A DNA stretch of 64,000 bases, from NCBI GenBank assembly GCA_001792305.1, contig MGGH01000036.1:18599-82598 (forward strand), given 5' to 3'. Of this stretch, positions 2,391 to 62,317 are shown one piece after another. Position numbers and translations under genes: made by a program. Position 1 is the first letter of the stretch; each line of letters opens with the position of its first letter. This DNA is from Candidatus Woesebacteria bacterium RIFCSPHIGHO2_01_FULL_39_23 (GTDB lineage Bacteria > Patescibacteriota > Microgenomatia > UBA8517). The notes under the pieces were generated by a model. It did not search any database. It worked only from the letters and a program-made list of their open reading frames with translations, and was not told where the DNA came from.

Positions 2391-3559
2391 TTACATCTCT
2401 TCGCCAGTAACTCTTATTACTTCGCTTATTGTTGTACCTTGCGCCACCTTATCAAGGGCCGCCTCCTTAAGATTTTTTATACCCTTTTGTTTAACTAAAG
2501 GGAGAAGGTCAGATAGCTGAGGATTTTCCGTGATAATGGATCTGATTTCCTCGTCAAAAGGAACTACCTCGAAAATTCCAATGCGGCCTTTATAACCACT
2601 CGTTACGCATTCATTACACCCTCTACCTTTAAATAAAGTACTTCCAGAAATATTTTCTACAAACCTTAATTCATTTTGTTTTGGAGAATATTCTTCTTTG
2701 CAATTATTGCAAATTTTTCTTACCAATCTGGCTGATATTACTGCATTGACTGAATTGGCAGTAACAGACCTTGGTACTCCCATTTCAATGAGCCTTGCGG
2801 TTACGCCGAATACGTTTAGAGTGTGGAATGTAGAAAAAACTAGCCTACCGGTTAATGCTGCCTGAATCGAAATTTGAGCTGTCTCGTTGTCTCTTATTTC
2901 TCCGACCATAATTATGTCTGGATCTTGCCGTAGTACTGCTTTTAAAGCCTTGCAAAAGTAAACGCTGTTGCTTCGTTAACCTGGGTTTGTCTAATTTCTT
3001 CCATTTGGACTTCAACAGGGTCTTCAATTGTAATGATATTATTGGTTTCTTTTTTGACCGAATTTAGTATTGAGTAAAGGAGTGTAGTTTTTCCCGATCC
3101 AGATGGTCCGGTGATCAAGACCATTCCGTATGGGTCATTTATTAGTTTTAACATAGTTTTATGTTGGTTTTCGTCAAACCCAAGTTCTGAAATGTCTATT
3201 AAGATATCTTCCCTGTTTAGTATCCTCATTACGATTGACTCGCCATAAATAGTGGGGAATGCGGAAACACGTATGTTATAGATTCTGACGTCGTAATTAA
3301 ACTCGAAATGCCCATCTTGGGGAAGCCTATGCTCGGTAATATCTAGTCCGGCTAGAACCTTTATTCTAGAGGTGATAGATTCCACGCTGTCCAAATTTAC
3401 CCGTTCGACGTCGTAGAGCATGCCGTCGATTCGAAACCTTACCTTTATACCCTCTCTTTGAGGTTCCAGATGAATGTCACTTGCTCTTTTACCGATCGCG
3501 TCAGTAAGAAGCCTATTTAGCCAATCGTTTTCTCCGGCACGAAGAGTAAAGTCCACCAT
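2391..3559 (-). pseudogene. PilB/GspE-family secretion ATPase (type II secretion / type IV pilus) split into two ORFs by a 1-nt frameshift; lacks the N1 domain
   Basis: N-terminal fragment (3559..2942) carries Walker A LITGPSGSGKTTLLYS. C-terminal fragment (2909..2391) carries MVGEIRD, the His box LVFSTFHT and a tetracysteine motif. Read upstream past its ATG, the C-terminal frame continues KALKAVLRQDPDII, which joins the FTFA end of the N-terminal fragment with the expected motif order. The frames meet at about 2949-2957 inside a TTTT run on the minus strand. One extra T would restore a single ORF. Confidence 0.75.
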
Positions 3560-5237: not shown

Positions 5238-5810
5238 ATGGATGGAGTTATCACAGAACAAAATTACCCAGTAGAAGGTGTTTGGGTTCTGAAATCTATT
5301 TTAGGTTCAATTGTTGCCCTACTAACTATTGGTTTGTTTTACCTGCTTAGCAAAGATAAAAGTGAAGTAGTCTTTTATTTACTGCTTATGGCTTTCCTAA
5401 TTCCCGTAAATTTAGTTTTTGCGGCCCTACGCAGAATTACGTTTCATTACGCTTTAGATTCCAAATTTTTAAACTTACAGCAAGGTATTTTGAATAAAAC
5501 ACAGAGACATATTCCGTATGGAGTAATACAAAATGTCTTTGTTAAGCAAGATTTGTTTGATAGATTATTTGGTCTTGCCTCACTTACTTTGGAAAACGCC
5601 TCAATGGGGGCAGGTAGTCAAGAAGGACTAACAAAAGTATTTGGCATAACTTTAAGCAATAAAAAGCAACAGAGGGTCGAAATGGTAGGCTTTAGCGGTA
5701 ACAAGGTGAGTATTCCAGGGCTTACAAAGCAAAATGCGGAGACGTTGAAGAGTATCGTTCTTCAAAAGATGAAAGAGAACCCCGTCGAAGACAGCCAGTC
5801 CGGTTTGTAG
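5238..5810 (+). CDS. Bacterial PH-domain (bPH_2, YdbT-like) membrane protein, tandem partner of the gene above
   Basis: TM helices plus IPYGVIQNVFVKQDLFDRLFGLASLTLENAS, the same motif architecture. Separated from the upstream paralog by 4 nt. Confidence 0.65.
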   Translation: MDGVITEQNYPVEGVWVLKSILGSIVALLTIGLFYLLSKDKSEVVFYLLLMAFLIPVNLVFAALRRITFHYALDSKFLNLQQGILNKTQRHIPYGVIQNVFVKQDLFDRLFGLASLTLENASMGAGSQEGLTKVFGITLSNKKQQRVEMVGFSGNKVSIPGLTKQNAETLKSIVLQKMKENPVEDSQSGL

Positions 5811-5907
5811 AAGCACTCCACTTTCCCAGAGTTGATAAGTAAATTTTTTGTAATGGATACTGTAATATCGGAGTTATTACAACAATCAGCTTATGTCTTT
5901 TACATAA

Positions 5908-6531
5908 TTATCTTTCAAGATTAAATAACTCTTGTAATTTCTTGACTATAGCTTCATCTGCTCTTTTATCTGCTAGCTCTCTTTCCTCTTGAGTAAGTTC
6001 GCTGTGTGGTTTACCAAAAGCGGAAGGACCCTGTAAGCTACTCATTGGCCAACCAGGTATCCTAACATTAGAAGGTGGCGAGAAAAACATAATTGGGTGG
6101 TCTAAAGAAACAGTGTGTATAGTTCCATCTGGATGTGCTATGCAGTAAGCAATATGCCATTTACCCGCCCGTTCTTCTTCAGGTACCGCAGACACGACTT
6201 GCTCCCAATACGAGAGTAGTGTTTCATCATCAACCTCATCTTTGCCGTTTATCCGTCTTACATGGACCCCAGGCTGCTGGTTCTCTGGCAAAAAATCAAC
6301 ATATAACGCTTCATCTTCAGAAAAGACTAACATACCAGTTCTTTGTGCATAATGTTTACCCTTTATCTCAGCGTTTTGTTCTGCTGTTTCCCCATTTTCT
6401 TCTGGCTTGTCAGTTATACCTAAATCACTCAGACCTACAACTTGTGAAGTATATTGAGATAATAACTTTCCGTATCTTTCGACTTTAGCGGGATTCTTAC
6501 TAGCAACAACGATACTTTCGATTTCTTTCAT
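5908..6531 (-). CDS. Ham1/RdgB-family non-canonical purine NTP pyrophosphatase-like protein
   Basis: IVVASKNPAKVERYGKLL aligns with the RdgB N-terminus (VVLATGNxGKxRE). The internal and C-terminal regions run collinear with ITPases. Confidence 0.65.
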   Translation of the reverse strand: MKEIESIVVASKNPAKVERYGKLLSQYTSQVVGLSDLGITDKPEENGETAEQNAEIKGKHYAQRTGMLVFSEDEALYVDFLPENQQPGVHVRRINGKDEVDDETLLSYWEQVVSAVPEEERAGKWHIAYCIAHPDGTIHTVSLDHPIMFFSPPSNVRIPGWPMSSLQGPSAFGKPHSELTQEERELADKRADEAIVKKLQELFNLER

Positions 6532-6595: not shown

Positions 6596-6669
6596 TGGTC
6601 GGGGAAAGGTGAATTGAACACCTACCACACCCACCCCATGGGCGTATTCTACCGTTAAACTATTCCCCG
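6596..6669 (-). tRNA. tRNA-Pro (anticodon GGG), CCA encoded
   Basis: Hand-folded 74-nt cloverleaf on the minus strand. Acceptor CGGGGAA/TTCCCCG. D-arm GTTT-AACGGTA-GAAT. Anticodon stem CGCCC/GGGTG around loop ATGGGGT (GGG anticodon, G37). T-arm AGGTG-TTCAATT-CACCT. Discriminator A, then CCA. Confidence 0.8.
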
Positions 6670-18244: not shown

Positions 18245-18307
18245 GTAACCTCAGTTACTGTTTTAGTCAATAGTCCAATTGTGAATCTTTTTTGCTACAA
18301 TAGCTCC

Positions 18308-18751
18308 ATGCGGTTGGTAATTCAAAGAGTAAAAAGTGCTTCTGTTGAGGTTGTTGGAACCAAAAAAGTTGTCGGGAAAATTGGCAAGGGTTTTTTTGTT
18401 TTAGTTGGAGTCGGAAAAAACGACACAGAGAAAAAAGCTCACCAATTGGCTGGAAAACTAGCAAAGTTAAGGGTGATGAGCGACGAGTTTGGGAAAATGA
18501 ATCTATCCGTAAGGGATGTTGGTGCGGAGGTTTTGGTTGTCTCTCAATTTACGCTTTATGCGTATGCAAAAGACGGAAATAGACCTTCGTTTATAGAAGC
18601 AGCTGATCCGAAAAAGGCAAGAGAAATCTATGAACACTTTATAGATAAACTTAAGAATTTGGGTGTAAAAGTTGAAACAGGAAGCTTTGGAGAATATATG
18701 AAGATAAATACGGAACTTGACGGACCTGTTACGATAATTTTAGAAAGTTAA
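18308..18751 (+). CDS. dtd: D-aminoacyl-tRNA deacylase
   Basis: MRLVIQRV N-terminus and the SQFTLYA motif. 147 aa. Confidence 0.85.
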   Translation: MRLVIQRVKSASVEVVGTKKVVGKIGKGFFVLVGVGKNDTEKKAHQLAGKLAKLRVMSDEFGKMNLSVRDVGAEVLVVSQFTLYAYAKDGNRPSFIEAADPKKAREIYEHFIDKLKNLGVKVETGSFGEYMKINTELDGPVTIILES

Positions 18752-32419: not shown

Positions 32420-32742
32420 ATCAAACCTCCGCCTTGACCCAGTTGGTAAGGCGGAAGTAAATTCTGTGAATTTGAACTTTCTTTGGCATGCGAATGAAAT
32501 TATACCAAAGATACAGTTGATTTTGTCAAGTAGAGGAAGTAATATACTTCCAAACCGTTTAAGCTTGACTAACATCGAGCAAGGTGAAGGAAGAAAGCCT
32601 TTTGGCAAATAGACCCTTCCGGAGGCGCCCGTAAAAGCGCATTTAATGAAGTTAAATTAAGGGTGGCACCGTCTTGAGCAAAGTCGAGAGACCCCTGTAA
32701 GTTAATGAAAAGTAGTTCGTTAATTTACAGGGTCTTTTTTGG
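32420..32742 (+). promoter_or_regulatory. T-box riboswitch leader (tRNA-sensing antitermination) upstream of the aspartate operon
   Basis: T-box consensus AATTAAGGGTGGCACCGTC at 32654-32672 (consensus AGGGUGGNACCGCG). Antiterminator A1 AGGG pairs with CCCT. The bulge TGGC would pair with a tRNA GCCA end (G73 discriminator). The 3' strand AGACCCCTGTAA doubles as the 5' arm of an intrinsic terminator (AGACCCCTGTAA...TTACAGGGTCT, then TTTTTT at 32735-32740), immediately before the ATG at 32751. Confidence 0.7.
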
Positions 32743-32750
32743 AAATAAAT

Positions 32751-33929
32751 ATGACACACTCAAGGGTATCCAAAAGAATTTTAAATTTAAAACCTTCAGC
32801 CACTCTTGCGGTCGACTCTTTAATTAAAGACCTTCAAGAAAAGGGTGAAAAAATAATCAATTTAGGCCTCGGAGAACCTGATTTTGATACGCCTCAGAGC
32901 ATTAAAAATGCAGCTATAAAAGCGATAAAAGATGGTTTTACTCATTATACAAAAGTAGAAGGAATAAAATCTTTAAGAGAAGCCATTGCTAAAAAATTAT
33001 TGGAAGAAAATAAAGTTAAATATATTCCGGAAGAAATAGTTGTAGGGGTTGGCAGCAAGCAGGTACTGTATAACGCTTTCCAAGTAATTTGTAATCCTGG
33101 CGATGAAGTTGTACTAATCTCTCCACTTTGGAATACTTATATCGAACAAATAAAATTAGCAGGTGCAAAACCAGTAGTTTCAAAACTTTCATTTCCATTC
33201 AAGCTAGTACCCCAAGACATTGAAAAAAAGATAACAAGGAAGACAAAAGCAATACTTTTAAATTATCCAAATAATCCGACTGGAATGACAATAGAAAGAA
33301 ATGTGCTAAAGGAAATAGCTAAACTTGCAGTTAATAGAAAAATATTTGTTATAAGCGATGAAATTTACGAGTCGCTTTTATATAGTAAAGTGCACACTTC
33401 TATAGCTTCATGGGGTAAAGAAATTAGAAATTTAACAATAACTATTGGCGGATTTTCTAAGACATATGCAATGACGGGTTGGAGAATTGGTTTTGGGGCA
33501 GGACCCAGAGATTTGATTTCTCCCATAATTTCTTTGCAAGGTCAAACAACTTTTAACACTTCTTCAATTTCTCAAATGGCGGCGCTAGCTGCAATTAAAT
33601 CTGGTCAGAACGACGTTCAAGCTATGCTTAAAGAGTATGAGAAAAGAAGAAATTTTATTTATAAAAGATTATCTAAAATTGAGGGTTTAGATTTGTATCT
33701 TCCTGATGGAGCCTTTTATTTTTTCATTGGTATTAAAAAATATTTGAATAAAAATATTTCTTCATCTAATCAATGGGCGCAAAAACTATTACAAGAAGAA
33801 AAGGTTGCAGTTATACCTGGAGAATCTTTTCTTTACCCTGACTTTTTCCGGATTAGTTTCACAACTTCACTTGAAAATGTTAAAGAAGGGTTAAAAAGAA
33901 TAGAAAGATTTGTTAAAAAATATGCGTAA
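32751..33929 (+). CDS. PLP-dependent aminotransferase, aspartate aminotransferase family (ORF track starts at TTG 32739)
   Basis: Fold-type I aminotransferase with the PLP-lysine motif GGFSKTYAMTGWRIGF and NPTG. Confidence 0.85.
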   Translation: MTHSRVSKRILNLKPSATLAVDSLIKDLQEKGEKIINLGLGEPDFDTPQSIKNAAIKAIKDGFTHYTKVEGIKSLREAIAKKLLEENKVKYIPEEIVVGVGSKQVLYNAFQVICNPGDEVVLISPLWNTYIEQIKLAGAKPVVSKLSFPFKLVPQDIEKKITRKTKAILLNYPNNPTGMTIERNVLKEIAKLAVNRKIFVISDEIYESLLYSKVHTSIASWGKEIRNLTITIGGFSKTYAMTGWRIGFGAGPRDLISPIISLQGQTTFNTSSISQMAALAAIKSGQNDVQAMLKEYEKRRNFIYKRLSKIEGLDLYLPDGAFYFFIGIKKYLNKNISSSNQWAQKLLQEEKVAVIPGESFLYPDFFRISFTTSLENVKEGLKRIERFVKKYA

Positions 33930-35427
33930 AATACCGACCACGATGGTTTCGCAACATCCAGATCATGCTAATAAACCATATTGGCATGATAATGAATTTA
34001 TTTCTACTAACAACGAGTCAGTAGAGTGTTTCTTATCTTATTCAGACTTGGGAGTTTCTGAGTATAAATGGGACTGGGAAGGCAAATTGGTTGACGAGTC
34101 AGTTCTGGAAAGGCTTTTAAGTGAGCATTTTGATTATTTTAAAAAGAATCAAATTGGACGGGATATATTTTTAACTTTCCGTCTTCCTAACCCAAAAGTT
34201 GAGACAGAATTTAGACTGGGCAGGGCTTTTATGGGAATCCTTTCTGCTGCACAACTTGCTAAACAAGTTGGGTTACACTTTCCTCCTCTTTTTGAAGTAA
34301 TCCTTCCTATGACGGGGAGTGCGGAGGAGATGATAGAAATTCAAGAGGCTTTTGCTGAAATAGCACAGCTTAAACACAAGCTTTACAATTTTAAAAATGG
34401 GTCATTAAAACACATAGAAGTTATTCCACTCTTTGAGCAAGTTGAAAAAGTCATTGATTCTGACAAAATCTTAAACAACTATGTTAGACTTCATGAGAAA
34501 AAATTTGGATTCACACCCTCTTATATAAGACCTTATGTAGCACGTAGCGATCCTGCCCTTAATTCAGGTATTGTTCCAACGATTCTGGCGATAAAGATTG
34601 CTCTTTCTCGTTATCTTGAATTTTCTCGGAAAACTGGCATTGAATTATATCCAATAATAGGAACAGGGTCACTTCCTTTCCGCGGTGGACTGAATCCAAA
34701 GACAGTTAACGACTTCTTAGAGGAATACAAGGGTATAAGAACTGCGCTTCTGCAGAGTGCATTTCGATACGATTATGGTATGGATGAGGTGAAGAGGGCC
34801 ATAGCCAAACTGGAGAATAAGCTTCCTGAAGCAGAAGCTCTCTCTATTACAAAGACAAAAGAAAAAAACTTAAGGAATGTGATTGCCGCTTTTGAGACTT
34901 TTTATAGAAAAACTATTGAGGGTGTTGCCCCTTTGGTGAATGAGGTAGCGACTCTTCTGCCCAAAAGAAGAGAAAGAGTTCAGCATATTGGACTTTTTGG
35001 ATATTCTCGGGGAGTGGGAAAGGTTAGGTTACCGCGAGCAATTGGTTTCACAGGTGCTTTGTATTCTTTGGGAATTCCGCCAGAGCTGATCGGGACAGGG
35101 AGGGGTTTACGAGAGGCAAGGAAAGTTGGGGTTCTTTCTGAAGTAGAAAAATACTATCAAGGGTTAAGAGGAGATATGATTCGTGCGGGTGCATTTTTAA
35201 ATAAAAGTGTTTTAATGAAACTTGCGAAACAAAATTCTTCCTGGGGAGAAATTTTGGAGGACGTAAGGCACGTTGAAAATTTTCTGGGGAAAGATTTATT
35301 ACCTCGTAATATAGATGAAATGGCACATGGCAAGTTGAGTGAAACCATTTTTGAGAAAGTTAAAAGCGGTGAGTCTAGTATCAGCGAGATTGCTGAGGCT
35401 GCAGCTTTGCGAAAAAGTTTAGGCTAA
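33922..35427 (+). CDS. ppcA: Archaeal-type phosphoenolpyruvate carboxylase (PepcA family)
   Basis: N-terminus MRKIPTTMVSQHPD, then RLPNP, IPLFE, GSLPFRGG, SAFRYDYG and LPRAIGF, collinear with about 500-aa archaeal PEPCs. Confidence 0.75.
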   Translation: MRKIPTTMVSQHPDHANKPYWHDNEFISTNNESVECFLSYSDLGVSEYKWDWEGKLVDESVLERLLSEHFDYFKKNQIGRDIFLTFRLPNPKVETEFRLGRAFMGILSAAQLAKQVGLHFPPLFEVILPMTGSAEEMIEIQEAFAEIAQLKHKLYNFKNGSLKHIEVIPLFEQVEKVIDSDKILNNYVRLHEKKFGFTPSYIRPYVARSDPALNSGIVPTILAIKIALSRYLEFSRKTGIELYPIIGTGSLPFRGGLNPKTVNDFLEEYKGIRTALLQSAFRYDYGMDEVKRAIAKLENKLPEAEALSITKTKEKNLRNVIAAFETFYRKTIEGVAPLVNEVATLLPKRRERVQHIGLFGYSRGVGKVRLPRAIGFTGALYSLGIPPELIGTGRGLREARKVGVLSEVEKYYQGLRGDMIRAGAFLNKSVLMKLAKQNSSWGEILEDVRHVENFLGKDLLPRNIDEMAHGKLSETIFEKVKSGESSISEIAEAAALRKSLG

Positions 35428-35463: not shown

Positions 35464-37269
35464 ATGGAAAGAACATTAATGACAGAAACTATAGAAAAGA
35501 TCAGCGAGAAGGTCTTGCTTAAAGGTTGGGTAGATACAGTTCGTGACCATGGAAAAATAACCTTTATCGATTTAAGAGACAGAAGTGGAATTGTTCAATG
35601 CGTCGGTCAAAATGTGCCGAAGGTAAGTGTAGAAAGCGTGGTTGAAGTTAAAGGTACTGTTGCCAAACGACCAGAAAAATTAGTTAATAAAAATCTTGAA
35701 ACAGGTGAAGTGGAAGTACAAATTGAAAAACTGGAGGTTATTTCTAAATCTTCCGAATTGCCTATAGACTTGGGTAAAAGTGAACTCGATTTAGAACTAC
35801 CGACTCTTTTAGATTATCGTTCACTGACACTCCGTCATCCAAAAATAAAGGCAATATTTAAGGTTCAAGAGGTTATTATTGATAGTTTCAGACGAGCTTT
35901 AAAGGCAAAAGAATTTGTCGAATTTCAAGCTCCGTCTATTATTTCATCGGCTCCTGAAGGAGGTGCAGAAATTTTCGAAGTTAAGTATTTTGGACACAAA
36001 GCTTATTTGGCGCAAAGTCCGCAGCTTTACAAATCTCTTTTGGTCAGCGTATTTGAGCGAGTTTTTAGTGTTAATAAGGTATTTCGGGCTGAGCCGAGTG
36101 TAACAACGCGGCATTTAACTGAAGTAGTAAGTTTAGACGCAGAATTTGGGTTTATTGACTCGTGGATTGAAATTAAAGATATGGCAGAGTATGTAGTTAA
36201 GTTTATTTTGAAAGAAGTTGAGAAAAATTGCTCTCATGAGCTTGAGATTTTCGGTGCTACGGTGCCTGCCGTATCGGATAAAATTCCATATCTTAAGTTA
36301 AGAGAAGCACAGCAAATTATTTATGAAAGAACGGGTCGTGACGTTCGTCAAGAAAAAGACCCTTCACCAGAAGACGAGCGGGAAATTTGTCGCTGGTCAA
36401 AAGAAGTGCACGGATCCGATCTTGTTTTTATTACTCATTATCCGACCAAATATAGGCCATTTTATACCTATCCCGACCCTGAAGATCCAGAGTATAACCA
36501 GGGGTTTGATCTAATAGGTAGGGGGACTGAATGGATGACAGGAGGAAGAAGGATCCATGATTACAAAACTCTGGTCGAACACGCAAGAAAATGGGGAATA
36601 AACCCCAAAAATATAGGACTTTATCTTCAAGCTTATGAATACGGGATGCCACCGCTTGGGGGATTTGCATTTGGCGCAGAGCGAATTACTATGCATGTTT
36701 TAGGTCTTAAAAATATCCGAGAAGCTTCGCTTTTTCCTCGTGACATGGAACGTGTCGATTCCCTATTTTCGACAATGAAGAACACAAACGTTGATAAGCA
36801 GAAAACTGGTAAATCGGTTTACGAGGCAATACTTGATTTATTAAAAGCAAAGAAAATTGAATATAAGCACTACGAACATAAGCCAGTTTTTACAAGCGAG
36901 GAATCAGCTAAAGTTAGAGGTACAAATATTCACCAGGGGGCAAAAGCATTAGTTTTACAAGCTGGTAAAGAATTTATTTTGTATGTTTTACCAGCAGATT
37001 TTAAAGCCGAATTGGAGGCAATTAGAGAAAAACTTGGAATTGAAAGGCTTGTAATGGCATCAAAAGAAAGTGTTAAAGCAAAGATAGGTCTGGAGATAGG
37101 TTCCGTTCCTCCTTTAGGTTCGGTTATAAATTTGAAGACTCATGTCGACTCTCGACTTTCGGAAAACGAAGAAATTGCTTTTAATGCCGGAAGGCACGAC
37201 AGATCCATCAAGATGAAATACTCTGACTTTATTAAATTAGAGGAGCCAGAGGTAGTGCATCTGACTTAA
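35464..37269 (+). CDS. aspS: Aspartyl-tRNA synthetase (archaeal/eukaryal type) fused to a C-terminal YbaK/ProX-like aminoacyl-tRNA deacylase domain
   Basis: Residues 1-~435: OB fold plus class II core (FRAE, GGFAFGAERITM). Residues ~440-601 align with E. coli YbaK (LLKAKKIEYKHYEHKP; KALVLQAGKEFILYVLPADFKAELEAIREKLG...GSVPPLG; IAFNAGRHDRSIKM). Confidence 0.9.
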   Translation: MERTLMTETIEKISEKVLLKGWVDTVRDHGKITFIDLRDRSGIVQCVGQNVPKVSVESVVEVKGTVAKRPEKLVNKNLETGEVEVQIEKLEVISKSSELPIDLGKSELDLELPTLLDYRSLTLRHPKIKAIFKVQEVIIDSFRRALKAKEFVEFQAPSIISSAPEGGAEIFEVKYFGHKAYLAQSPQLYKSLLVSVFERVFSVNKVFRAEPSVTTRHLTEVVSLDAEFGFIDSWIEIKDMAEYVVKFILKEVEKNCSHELEIFGATVPAVSDKIPYLKLREAQQIIYERTGRDVRQEKDPSPEDEREICRWSKEVHGSDLVFITHYPTKYRPFYTYPDPEDPEYNQGFDLIGRGTEWMTGGRRIHDYKTLVEHARKWGINPKNIGLYLQAYEYGMPPLGGFAFGAERITMHVLGLKNIREASLFPRDMERVDSLFSTMKNTNVDKQKTGKSVYEAILDLLKAKKIEYKHYEHKPVFTSEESAKVRGTNIHQGAKALVLQAGKEFILYVLPADFKAELEAIREKLGIERLVMASKESVKAKIGLEIGSVPPLGSVINLKTHVDSRLSENEEIAFNAGRHDRSIKMKYSDFIKLEEPEVVHLT

Positions 37270-62243: not shown

Positions 62244-62317
62244 TGGCTGCCCAGCCACGATTCGAACGTGGATTAGATGGTTCAGAGCCATCTGGCCTAC
62301 CGTTAGCCGACCGGGCA
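62244..62317 (-). tRNA. tRNA-Gln (anticodon CTG), CCA encoded
   Basis: Hand-folded 74-nt cloverleaf. Acceptor TGCCCGG/CTGGGCA (U1-A72). D-arm GGCT-AACGGTA-GGCC. Anticodon stem GATGG/CCATC around loop CTCTGAA. T-arm CCACG-TTCGAAT-CGTGG. G73, then CCA. Confidence 0.8.

Follow-up and report, generated by a model that had tools for sequence, protein, structure and literature searches.

In a 64,000-nucleotide stretch of the genome of Candidatus Woesebacteria bacterium RIFCSPHIGHO2_01_FULL_39_23 (contig MGGH01000036.1, positions 18,599 to 82,598; hereafter the window), one gene encodes an archaeal-type class IIb aspartyl-tRNA synthetase (AspRS) with an aminoacyl-tRNA deacylase domain at its C-terminus. 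The domain has the fold of the INS/YbaK/ProX superfamily, belongs to the YeaK/ProXp-ST1 subfamily and retains the conserved catalytic signature. Linkage of such deacylases to AspRS, by fusion or by operonic adjacency, was found to be recurrent, specific to AspRS and persistent through changes in the type of AspRS core. The arrangement may represent a tethered proofreading module. The gene, its domains and the putative catalytic elements of the deacylase are located in the window as follows.

35464..37269, plus strand: whole fused gene (aspS::yeaK-like), ATG start, 601 aa and a stop codon (open reading frame (ORF) list, Pfam and NCBIfam)
35512..35742, plus strand: N-terminal OB-fold anticodon-binding domain, residues 17-93 (PF01336, tRNA_anti-codon, E 3e-15)
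35803..36744, plus strand: archaeal-type AspRS class IIb catalytic core, residues 114-427 (PF00152, tRNA-synt_2, E 3.4e-70)
36748..36807, plus strand: flexible inter-domain linker, residues 429-448 (predicted local distance difference test score (pLDDT) <50 in the full-length model)
36814..37266, plus strand: YeaK/ProXp-ST1-like aminoacyl-tRNA deacylase domain of the INS/YbaK superfamily, residues 451-601
36943..36945, plus strand: codon of Lys494, the putative catalytic lysine in a QGAKALV motif, aligned with YbaK K46 and YeaK K52
37099..37113, plus strand: codons of G546-S-V-P-P550, a G-x-x-P-P loop corresponding to the GXXXP loop of the superfamily

The original prediction, made from the sequence of the window, had placed a complete archaeal-type class IIb AspRS core and an editing domain on one polypeptide, and both elements were confirmed by profile searches. 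Pfam returned all three domains, including a match to the entire tRNA_edit profile (PF04073; residues 472-592 against profile positions 1-123 of 123, E 8.3e-25, 87.7 bits against a cut-off of 25.5), and the C-terminal domain has the fold characteristic of the INS/YbaK/ProX superfamily. The AspRS part passed NCBIfam equivalog cut-offs from end to end, scoring 472.9 bits (cut-off 353) with the aspartate--tRNA(Asn) ligase model NF003483, in which residues 2-431 matched profile positions 4-436 of 438, and also exceeding the cut-off of TIGR00458 (381.8 vs 368.4 bits). In public databases, the fused proteins are named only as 'aspartate--tRNA(Asn) ligase' or 'nondiscriminating aspartyl-tRNA synthetase'. 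Among 43 fused homologues, Q184-S-P-Q187 (the presumed Asp-binding QSPQ motif), K190, R208 and E210 (presumed class II motif 2), and G404, E406 and R407 (presumed motif 3) were invariant. An AlphaFold2 model of the full-length protein had a mean pLDDT of 84.9 with both bodies confidently predicted and a predicted template modelling score (pTM) of 0.66. In 56 archaeal-type fused proteins, the segment between the two bodies comprised 10-23 residues (median 17) and was hydrophilic, rich in S, T, K and E, and unconserved. The model describes this segment as a flexible tether of about 20 residues and not as a packed interface. Unfused relatives end with a short Lys-rich tail after the FPRDMERVD motif that is common to both forms.

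The fusion is a genuine gene. Its junction DNA is in frame, contains no homopolymer longer than A5 and no slippery run, and has a third-codon-position GC content of ~0.30 on either side. An identical protein is encoded by an independent ENA contig (P0001), and of the 120 best homologues, which came from assemblies in JGI, ENA, NCBI and Logan, 43 had the three-domain architecture. A set of 40 GTDB species-representative loci was recovered with the deacylase-domain pattern, and 30 of these were in the fused state, including loci from two single-cell genomes (L031 and L032). An artefact has practically no probability, be it a stop codon that was missed or a frameshift, both named at the outset as things to be checked, or a chimera formed during assembly: nothing in its favour was found beyond the existence of split versions in other genomes, and it is excluded by the clean junction of uniform composition, the identical independent protein and the recurrence of the fusion in dozens of independent assemblies.

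The domain had been described in the original prediction as aligning along its whole length with YbaK, the Cys-tRNAPro deacylase. The extent of the alignment was borne out, with residues 458-600 matching positions 5-151 of 152 in the YbaK model TIGR00011, but the score was only 51.1 bits against a cut-off of 153.25. The second YbaK equivalog model failed as well (NF007951, 24.4 vs 243 bits) and YbaK orthology was rejected. A BLASTP comparison of the domain with E. coli YbaK gave no match (E = 32), and the same comparison with E. coli YeaK gave 32% identity over 154 aa, end to end (E 1e-25). Profile alignment with hhalign, using a 90-sequence family profile, scored 202.6 for YeaK (E 1.4e-33) and 80.6 for YbaK (E 8e-13). 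At 27 family-core positions, defined as those conserved at >=85% in both AspRS-linked and unlinked members, YeaK has the family residue at 22, among them those of the GAKALV, PP and FNAG motifs and a conserved Ser, and YbaK at 13. [quoted passage not shown] The YbaK label thus names the superfamily correctly but not the family, as the YbaK models failed and YeaK was matched by BLASTP, hhalign and the tree. E. coli YeaK, which is annotated as a 'mischarged aminoacyl-tRNA deacylase' with the alias ProXp-ST1, is the closest characterised relative of the C-terminal domain, while among proteins of solved structure the best sequence match is lpg1207 of Legionella, which is uncharacterised (3op6; 66 bits). 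Members of the YeaK/ProXp-ST1 family are free-standing single-domain proteins that act in trans, a description that does not hold for the window protein or for the 30 fused species-level loci.

Conservation of the catalytic signature extends through linked and unlinked members alike. Lys494, which aligns with K46 of H. influenzae YbaK and K52 of E. coli YeaK, was present in 100% of 77 AspRS-linked and 85 unlinked members. In the same sets, G546 and P550 were also 100% conserved and P549 was conserved at 97-100%, in a loop that aligns with G108..P112 of YeaK and G101..P105 of YbaK. A further five residues (H472, R485, F573, N574 and S581) were invariant in the 77 AspRS-linked copies. Mutagenesis cited in PMC3532385 showed the equivalent of Lys494 to be essential in YbaK. 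These alignments show the signature of purifying selection on the presumptive catalytic residues of the deacylase. Two other positions differ between the sets: the K499-equivalent is basic in 66 of 85 unlinked members and the R513-equivalent in 62 of 85, and both are lost in the linked copies. Loss of these basic positions would fit an outsourcing of tRNA affinity to AspRS, although the pattern is only suggestive. Only residues Q491, M531 and E471 are enriched in the AspRS-linked deacylases; this enrichment and the loss at K499 and R513 are not enough to infer a substrate.

Linkage between the two genes takes several forms at a locus of conserved order, in which aspS is followed by a DD-carboxypeptidase gene (Peptidase_S11), a minus-strand hypothetical gene and gltX. 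Three states were observed at aspS: a fused deacylase, a split deacylase and no deacylase. In the split state, a separate gene for a deacylase of 153-164 aa lies directly after aspS, and the junction varies from an ATGA stop/start overlap (L004) to a TAA stop followed by an AAGGA motif and ATG (L005) or a 99-nt spacer with a hairpin (L048). Further split cases were found at L023 and L024, and at L045 the neighbouring pair is divergently oriented. The named taxa with linked forms include Woesebacteria, Amesbacteria, Gottesmanbacteria, Roizmanbacteria, Shapirobacteria, Chisholmbacteria, Microgenomatus and Paceibacterota, and Saccharibacteria contain split and divergent forms. Distant free-standing members, from Nanoarchaeota (P0140, P0153 and P0176) and from Chloroflexi loci, are not adjacent to aspS. 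An exhaustive phmmer search gave 816 cluster representatives at E <= 1e-10, and among the best 150 of these the long proteins were AspRS fusions, with the exception of a few oddities. The oddities (P0330, P0332, P0242, P0250 and P0382) comprised two N-terminal fusions to Peptidase_S11, triple-tandem deacylases and a WD40-repeat fusion.

The deacylase is fused to three AspRS architectures, namely the archaeal type, the bacterial type without a GAD domain and the bacterial type with one. Comparison of 30 full-length fused proteins (29 species representatives and the window protein) gave 16 with archaeal-type and 14 with bacterial-type cores. The bacterial-type cores passed the NF001750/TIGR00459 model with 565-643 bits against a cut-off of 443, and matched it in two stretches because the GAD insertion domain is missing. 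This insertion is a usual part of bacterial AspRS; among the fused proteins it was present only in L040, P0284 and P0388, which are ~745 aa in length. Bacterial-type AspRS above the NF001750 cut-off and without GAD is carried by many Patescibacteria and was found at L013, L014, L016, L018-L022, L026 and L031-L034, and at the split loci L004 and L048.

Identities to the window protein varied independently for the core and for the domains on either side of it. Among the archaeal-type proteins, OB-domain and deacylase identities co-varied (Spearman rho 0.62) and those of the core did not (rho 0.36 and 0.20). Locus L013 has an OB domain 70% and a deacylase 65% identical to those of the window protein around a bacterial-type core of 29% identity. 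The OB, core and deacylase identities are 40%, 76% and 38% for L043 and 61%, 51% and 63% for L011. This discordance suggests that the catalytic core has been swapped in place between co-varying flanking domains, with replacements that include archaeal-type for bacterial-type cores.

The reading we favour, and to which we give an even chance, is that the domain is a tethered post-transfer proofreading module for the tRNAs handled by AspRS. Judged from its sequence, the protein would be a working archaeal-type AspRS, annotated as non-discriminating, that carries a putatively competent YeaK/ProXp-ST1-type deacylase at its C-terminus. The AspRS body, comprising the OB domain and the core, would bring in tRNAAsp and probably tRNAAsn, and the tethered deacylase would sample the aminoacylated 3' end either on its way out of the synthetic site or shortly after release. 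Non-cognate aminoacyl esters would be hydrolysed by means of Lys494 and the G-x-x-P-P loop and Asp-tRNA would be spared. ProXp-ST1 and ProXp-ST2 hydrolyse Ser- and Thr-tRNAs made by ThrRS, AlaRS, IleRS, ValRS and class IIb LysRS, and have broad tRNA specificity (PMC11295145, PMC7373986). By analogy with these enzymes, the likeliest targets would be small hydroxylated near-cognate amino acids of the Ser/Thr type that are mis-transferred by AspRS. We infer that the domain is hydrolytic and acts on AspRS-bound tRNAs, and the roles proposed earlier, either clearing of misacylated tRNAAsp or tRNAAsn or editing on a non-discriminating AspRS, are plausible.

A number of observations weigh against proofreading. 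We know of no amino-acid mischarging problem for AspRS, and a literature search for one was likewise empty. A comparison of fused and unfused cores for systematic substitutions in the amino-acid pocket of AspRS gave none that were convincing and the pocket was canonical; such differences as were seen are mostly attributable to the close relationship of the unfused proteins, which form a single tight clade. Identities of 41-72% for the deacylase and 57-84% for the core show that the deacylase is the faster-evolving part. The AspRS-linked deacylases did not form one clade in any of 100 bootstraps, as YeaK and some free-standing proteins fell among them. In the closest unfused relatives, which have 83% core identity and the same locus and leader, aspS is followed directly by Peptidase_S11, so the deacylase is dispensable in some lineages. 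Two cluster representatives join the deacylase to this downstream neighbour, Peptidase_S11, which shows that fusions between neighbours can arise without functional logic. The AlphaFold model, as reflected in its pTM, contained no confident inter-domain packing and so gave no sign of a defined geometry for shuttling of the CCA end, as occurs in classical cis-editing synthetases.

The disordered linker with no predicted docking, the absence of the domain from close relatives and the existence of fusions to another neighbour would also be expected if the domain were a generic trans-editing factor of broad specificity that is simply tethered, with fusion to AspRS serving co-expression or stability or arising neutrally because the genes were neighbours in a compact genome. 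Adjacent genes look like the ancestral state, and ProXp-ST1 itself accepts a broad range of tRNAs without regard to N73 (PMC11295145). This explanation appears rather unlikely, given that the association with AspRS has lasted through three or more AspRS architectures and in many lineages of Patescibacteria while identity of the domain falls to ~40%, and given that Peptidase_S11 fusions are far fewer than AspRS fusions. The lack in linked copies of the basic residues found in free-standing members also speaks against autonomous tRNA binding. A non-catalytic role, in which the fold has been kept for tRNA binding, chaperoning or regulation and does not hydrolyse, is very improbable. Appended tRNA-binding domains are common on synthetases, and INS-fold domains are found in non-translation proteins such as HDOD/SadB, but all catalytic signature residues, including the essential lysine, are invariant or nearly so in the 77 linked copies.

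A different substrate is conceivable. The domain might act as a safety valve for the indirect Asn pathway, hydrolysing Asp-tRNAAsn missed by GatCAB while sparing Asp-tRNAAsp, and in this way either block the insertion of Asp at Asn codons or make a non-discriminating AspRS effectively discriminating. The specificity of the linkage for AspRS and the scores of the core above the aspartate--tRNA(Asn) ligase cut-offs would agree with such a role, for which there is a precedent in the hydrolysis of excess Glu-tRNAGln by H. pylori GluRS2 (PMC3241645). For the non-discriminating AspRS of H. pylori, Asp-tRNAAsn hydrolysis was undetectable and slow release was found instead (PMC3367201). We regard the role as improbable, because characterised enzymes of the YeaK family target Ser/Thr-type residues and not acidic ones, because comparison of 77 linked with 85 unlinked deacylases revealed no cationic pocket residue specific to the AspRS-linked set that could receive the Asp side chain, and because a synthetase that hydrolysed what it had itself made would be caught in a costly futile cycle. 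A tblastn search of the 64-kb window gave no second class IIb core, no gat gene was evident by eye among the translated ORFs of this 64 kb of the genome, and residue-level rules for recognising a non-discriminating AspRS are not given in PMC4206432. A bolder form of the idea, and a somewhat harder one to credit, is that a class IIb synthetase here has an editing domain for the first time, in the form of the YeaK-like domain, which polices the indirect Asn pathway, either by hydrolysing Asp-tRNAAsn that escapes GatCAB or by letting lineages that acquire AsnRS keep a non-discriminating AspRS. If true, transamidation would have a counterpart that works by hydrolysis and alters the effective tRNA specificity of AspRS after transfer.

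We know of no editing domain in the class IIb synthetases (AspRS, AsnRS and LysRS), and to our knowledge INS-superfamily domains have been described only as free-standing proteins or as parts of ProRS. No description of an AspRS-YbaK/ProX fusion, or of an editing architecture in a synthetase of the candidate phyla radiation, was found by full-text literature searches, in agreement with the earlier statement that no cis fusion of this kind to AspRS was known to have been described. The accompanying suggestion of a possible new editing architecture agrees with this, and the fusion is not an isolated case, being widespread in Patescibacteria and occurring on three AspRS architectures. Cis-editing domains of synthetases and free-standing INS deacylases are already known; what is new is a YeaK-type INS domain on a class IIb AspRS.

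Several known systems resemble the fusion in part. YeaK is a single-domain protein that acts in trans with broad tRNA specificity, whereas the window domain is tethered to AspRS, or elsewhere encoded right after it; the AspRS-linked domains also lack the two basic positions of free-standing members. YbaK, a deacylase of Cys-tRNAPro and Cys-tRNACys, differs in having ProRS and not AspRS as its partner synthetase. The INS domain of bacterial ProRS and the N-terminal ProXp-ala of lower-eukaryote ProRS are likewise INS domains within a synthetase polypeptide that perform post-transfer editing in cis (PMC11295145). However, these ProRS enzymes belong to class IIa, their domains lie either at the N-terminus or as an insertion separating motif 2 from motif 3 and their editing substrate is Ala-tRNAPro, while the window domain is C-terminal on a class IIb AspRS and belongs to another subfamily. 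The only INS-superfamily fusions given in that source are ProXp-ala-ProRS of lower eukaryotes and plant ProXp-ala-CTD (PMC11295145). In Trypanosoma brucei, the INS-superfamily deacylase MCP3 (ProXp-7) is held beside synthetases, including AspRS, in a multi-synthetase complex, but this association is non-covalent and eukaryotic, the protein falls in the ProXp-7 cluster and the activity shown is deacylation of Ala-tRNAPro (PMC11286415). The bifunctional AspRS-GatC fusion (NF009460) also has a C-terminal module on AspRS that acts on the aminoacyl-tRNA product; the module is an amidotransferase subunit and not a hydrolase, and the window protein scored 138 bits against the cut-off of 1379 for this model.

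Conservation of the AspRS-deacylase fusion across Patescibacteria, on both core types, suggests an unrecognised fidelity problem at tRNAAsp or tRNAAsn, which could concern either the Asp-tRNAAsn intermediate or an amino acid that is mischarged. In addition, the fusion offers a natural tethered trans-editing factor for study of how free-standing deacylases gain tRNA specificity.

A conserved leader and two metabolic genes precede aspS in the window.

32508..32742, plus strand: putative divergent T-box leader with terminator, upstream of the aminotransferase-PEP carboxylase-aspS string
32739-33929, plus strand: class I/II aminotransferase, AspAT-like (PF00155, 252 bits)
33910-35427, plus strand: archaeal-type phosphoenolpyruvate (PEP) carboxylase (PF14010, 453 bits)

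The leader contains the T-box motif AAGGGUGGCACCGUC, followed by a 17-bp hairpin terminator with a U-run, and also a K-turn-like GUUGA/CGAGCA element and AAGUA; the assignment of these individual elements is putative and follows the glyQS leader. The Rfam T-box model (RF00230) scored 17.4 bits for the window and 33.4 bits (E 7e-4) for L010, both below the gathering score of 93. Homologous leaders lie directly upstream of aspS in one unfused locus (L001, ~5780-6000), one split locus (L004, ~2300-2545) and two fused loci (L009, ~2400-2650; L010, 2446-2592). With the window, this makes five distinct loci in which the leader is conserved, and the stems of the terminator show compensatory changes among them. 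All five leaders have GAC or GAU triplets at plausible specifier positions, in a divergent Stem I where the Rfam alignment has low posterior probability. A UGGC bulge in the leader would fit a G73 discriminator. The element is probably a divergent T-box leader. The aminotransferase and PEP carboxylase genes share 20 nt, the end of the pair is separated from aspS by 36 nt, and the string behind the T-box-like leader would correspond to the route from PEP through oxaloacetate and Asp to Asp-tRNA. In the unfused L001, the leader stands straight before aspS and a RelA/SpoT gene lies upstream of the leader.

Elsewhere in the window, a canonical D-aminoacyl-tRNA deacylase (DTD) gene was found at 18281-18751 on the plus strand (PF02580, 186.6 bits), so that together with the fused deacylase the organism has at least two types of tRNA deacylase within 64 kb. 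No paralogue of the fused deacylase was found in the 64-kb window by tblastn. The only tRNA genes in the window, both on the minus strand, are tRNA-Pro(GGG) at 6596-6669 and tRNA-Gln(CTG) at 62244-62317; tRNAAsp and tRNAAsn genes are absent from it. Two minus-strand ORFs, at 2391-2909 (172 aa) and 2942-3559 (205 aa), resemble by eye the C-terminal and N-terminal halves, respectively, of a GspE/PilB-type secretion ATPase. The upstream half contains the Walker A motif GPSGSGKTT, and the pair may be a split or frameshifted gene.

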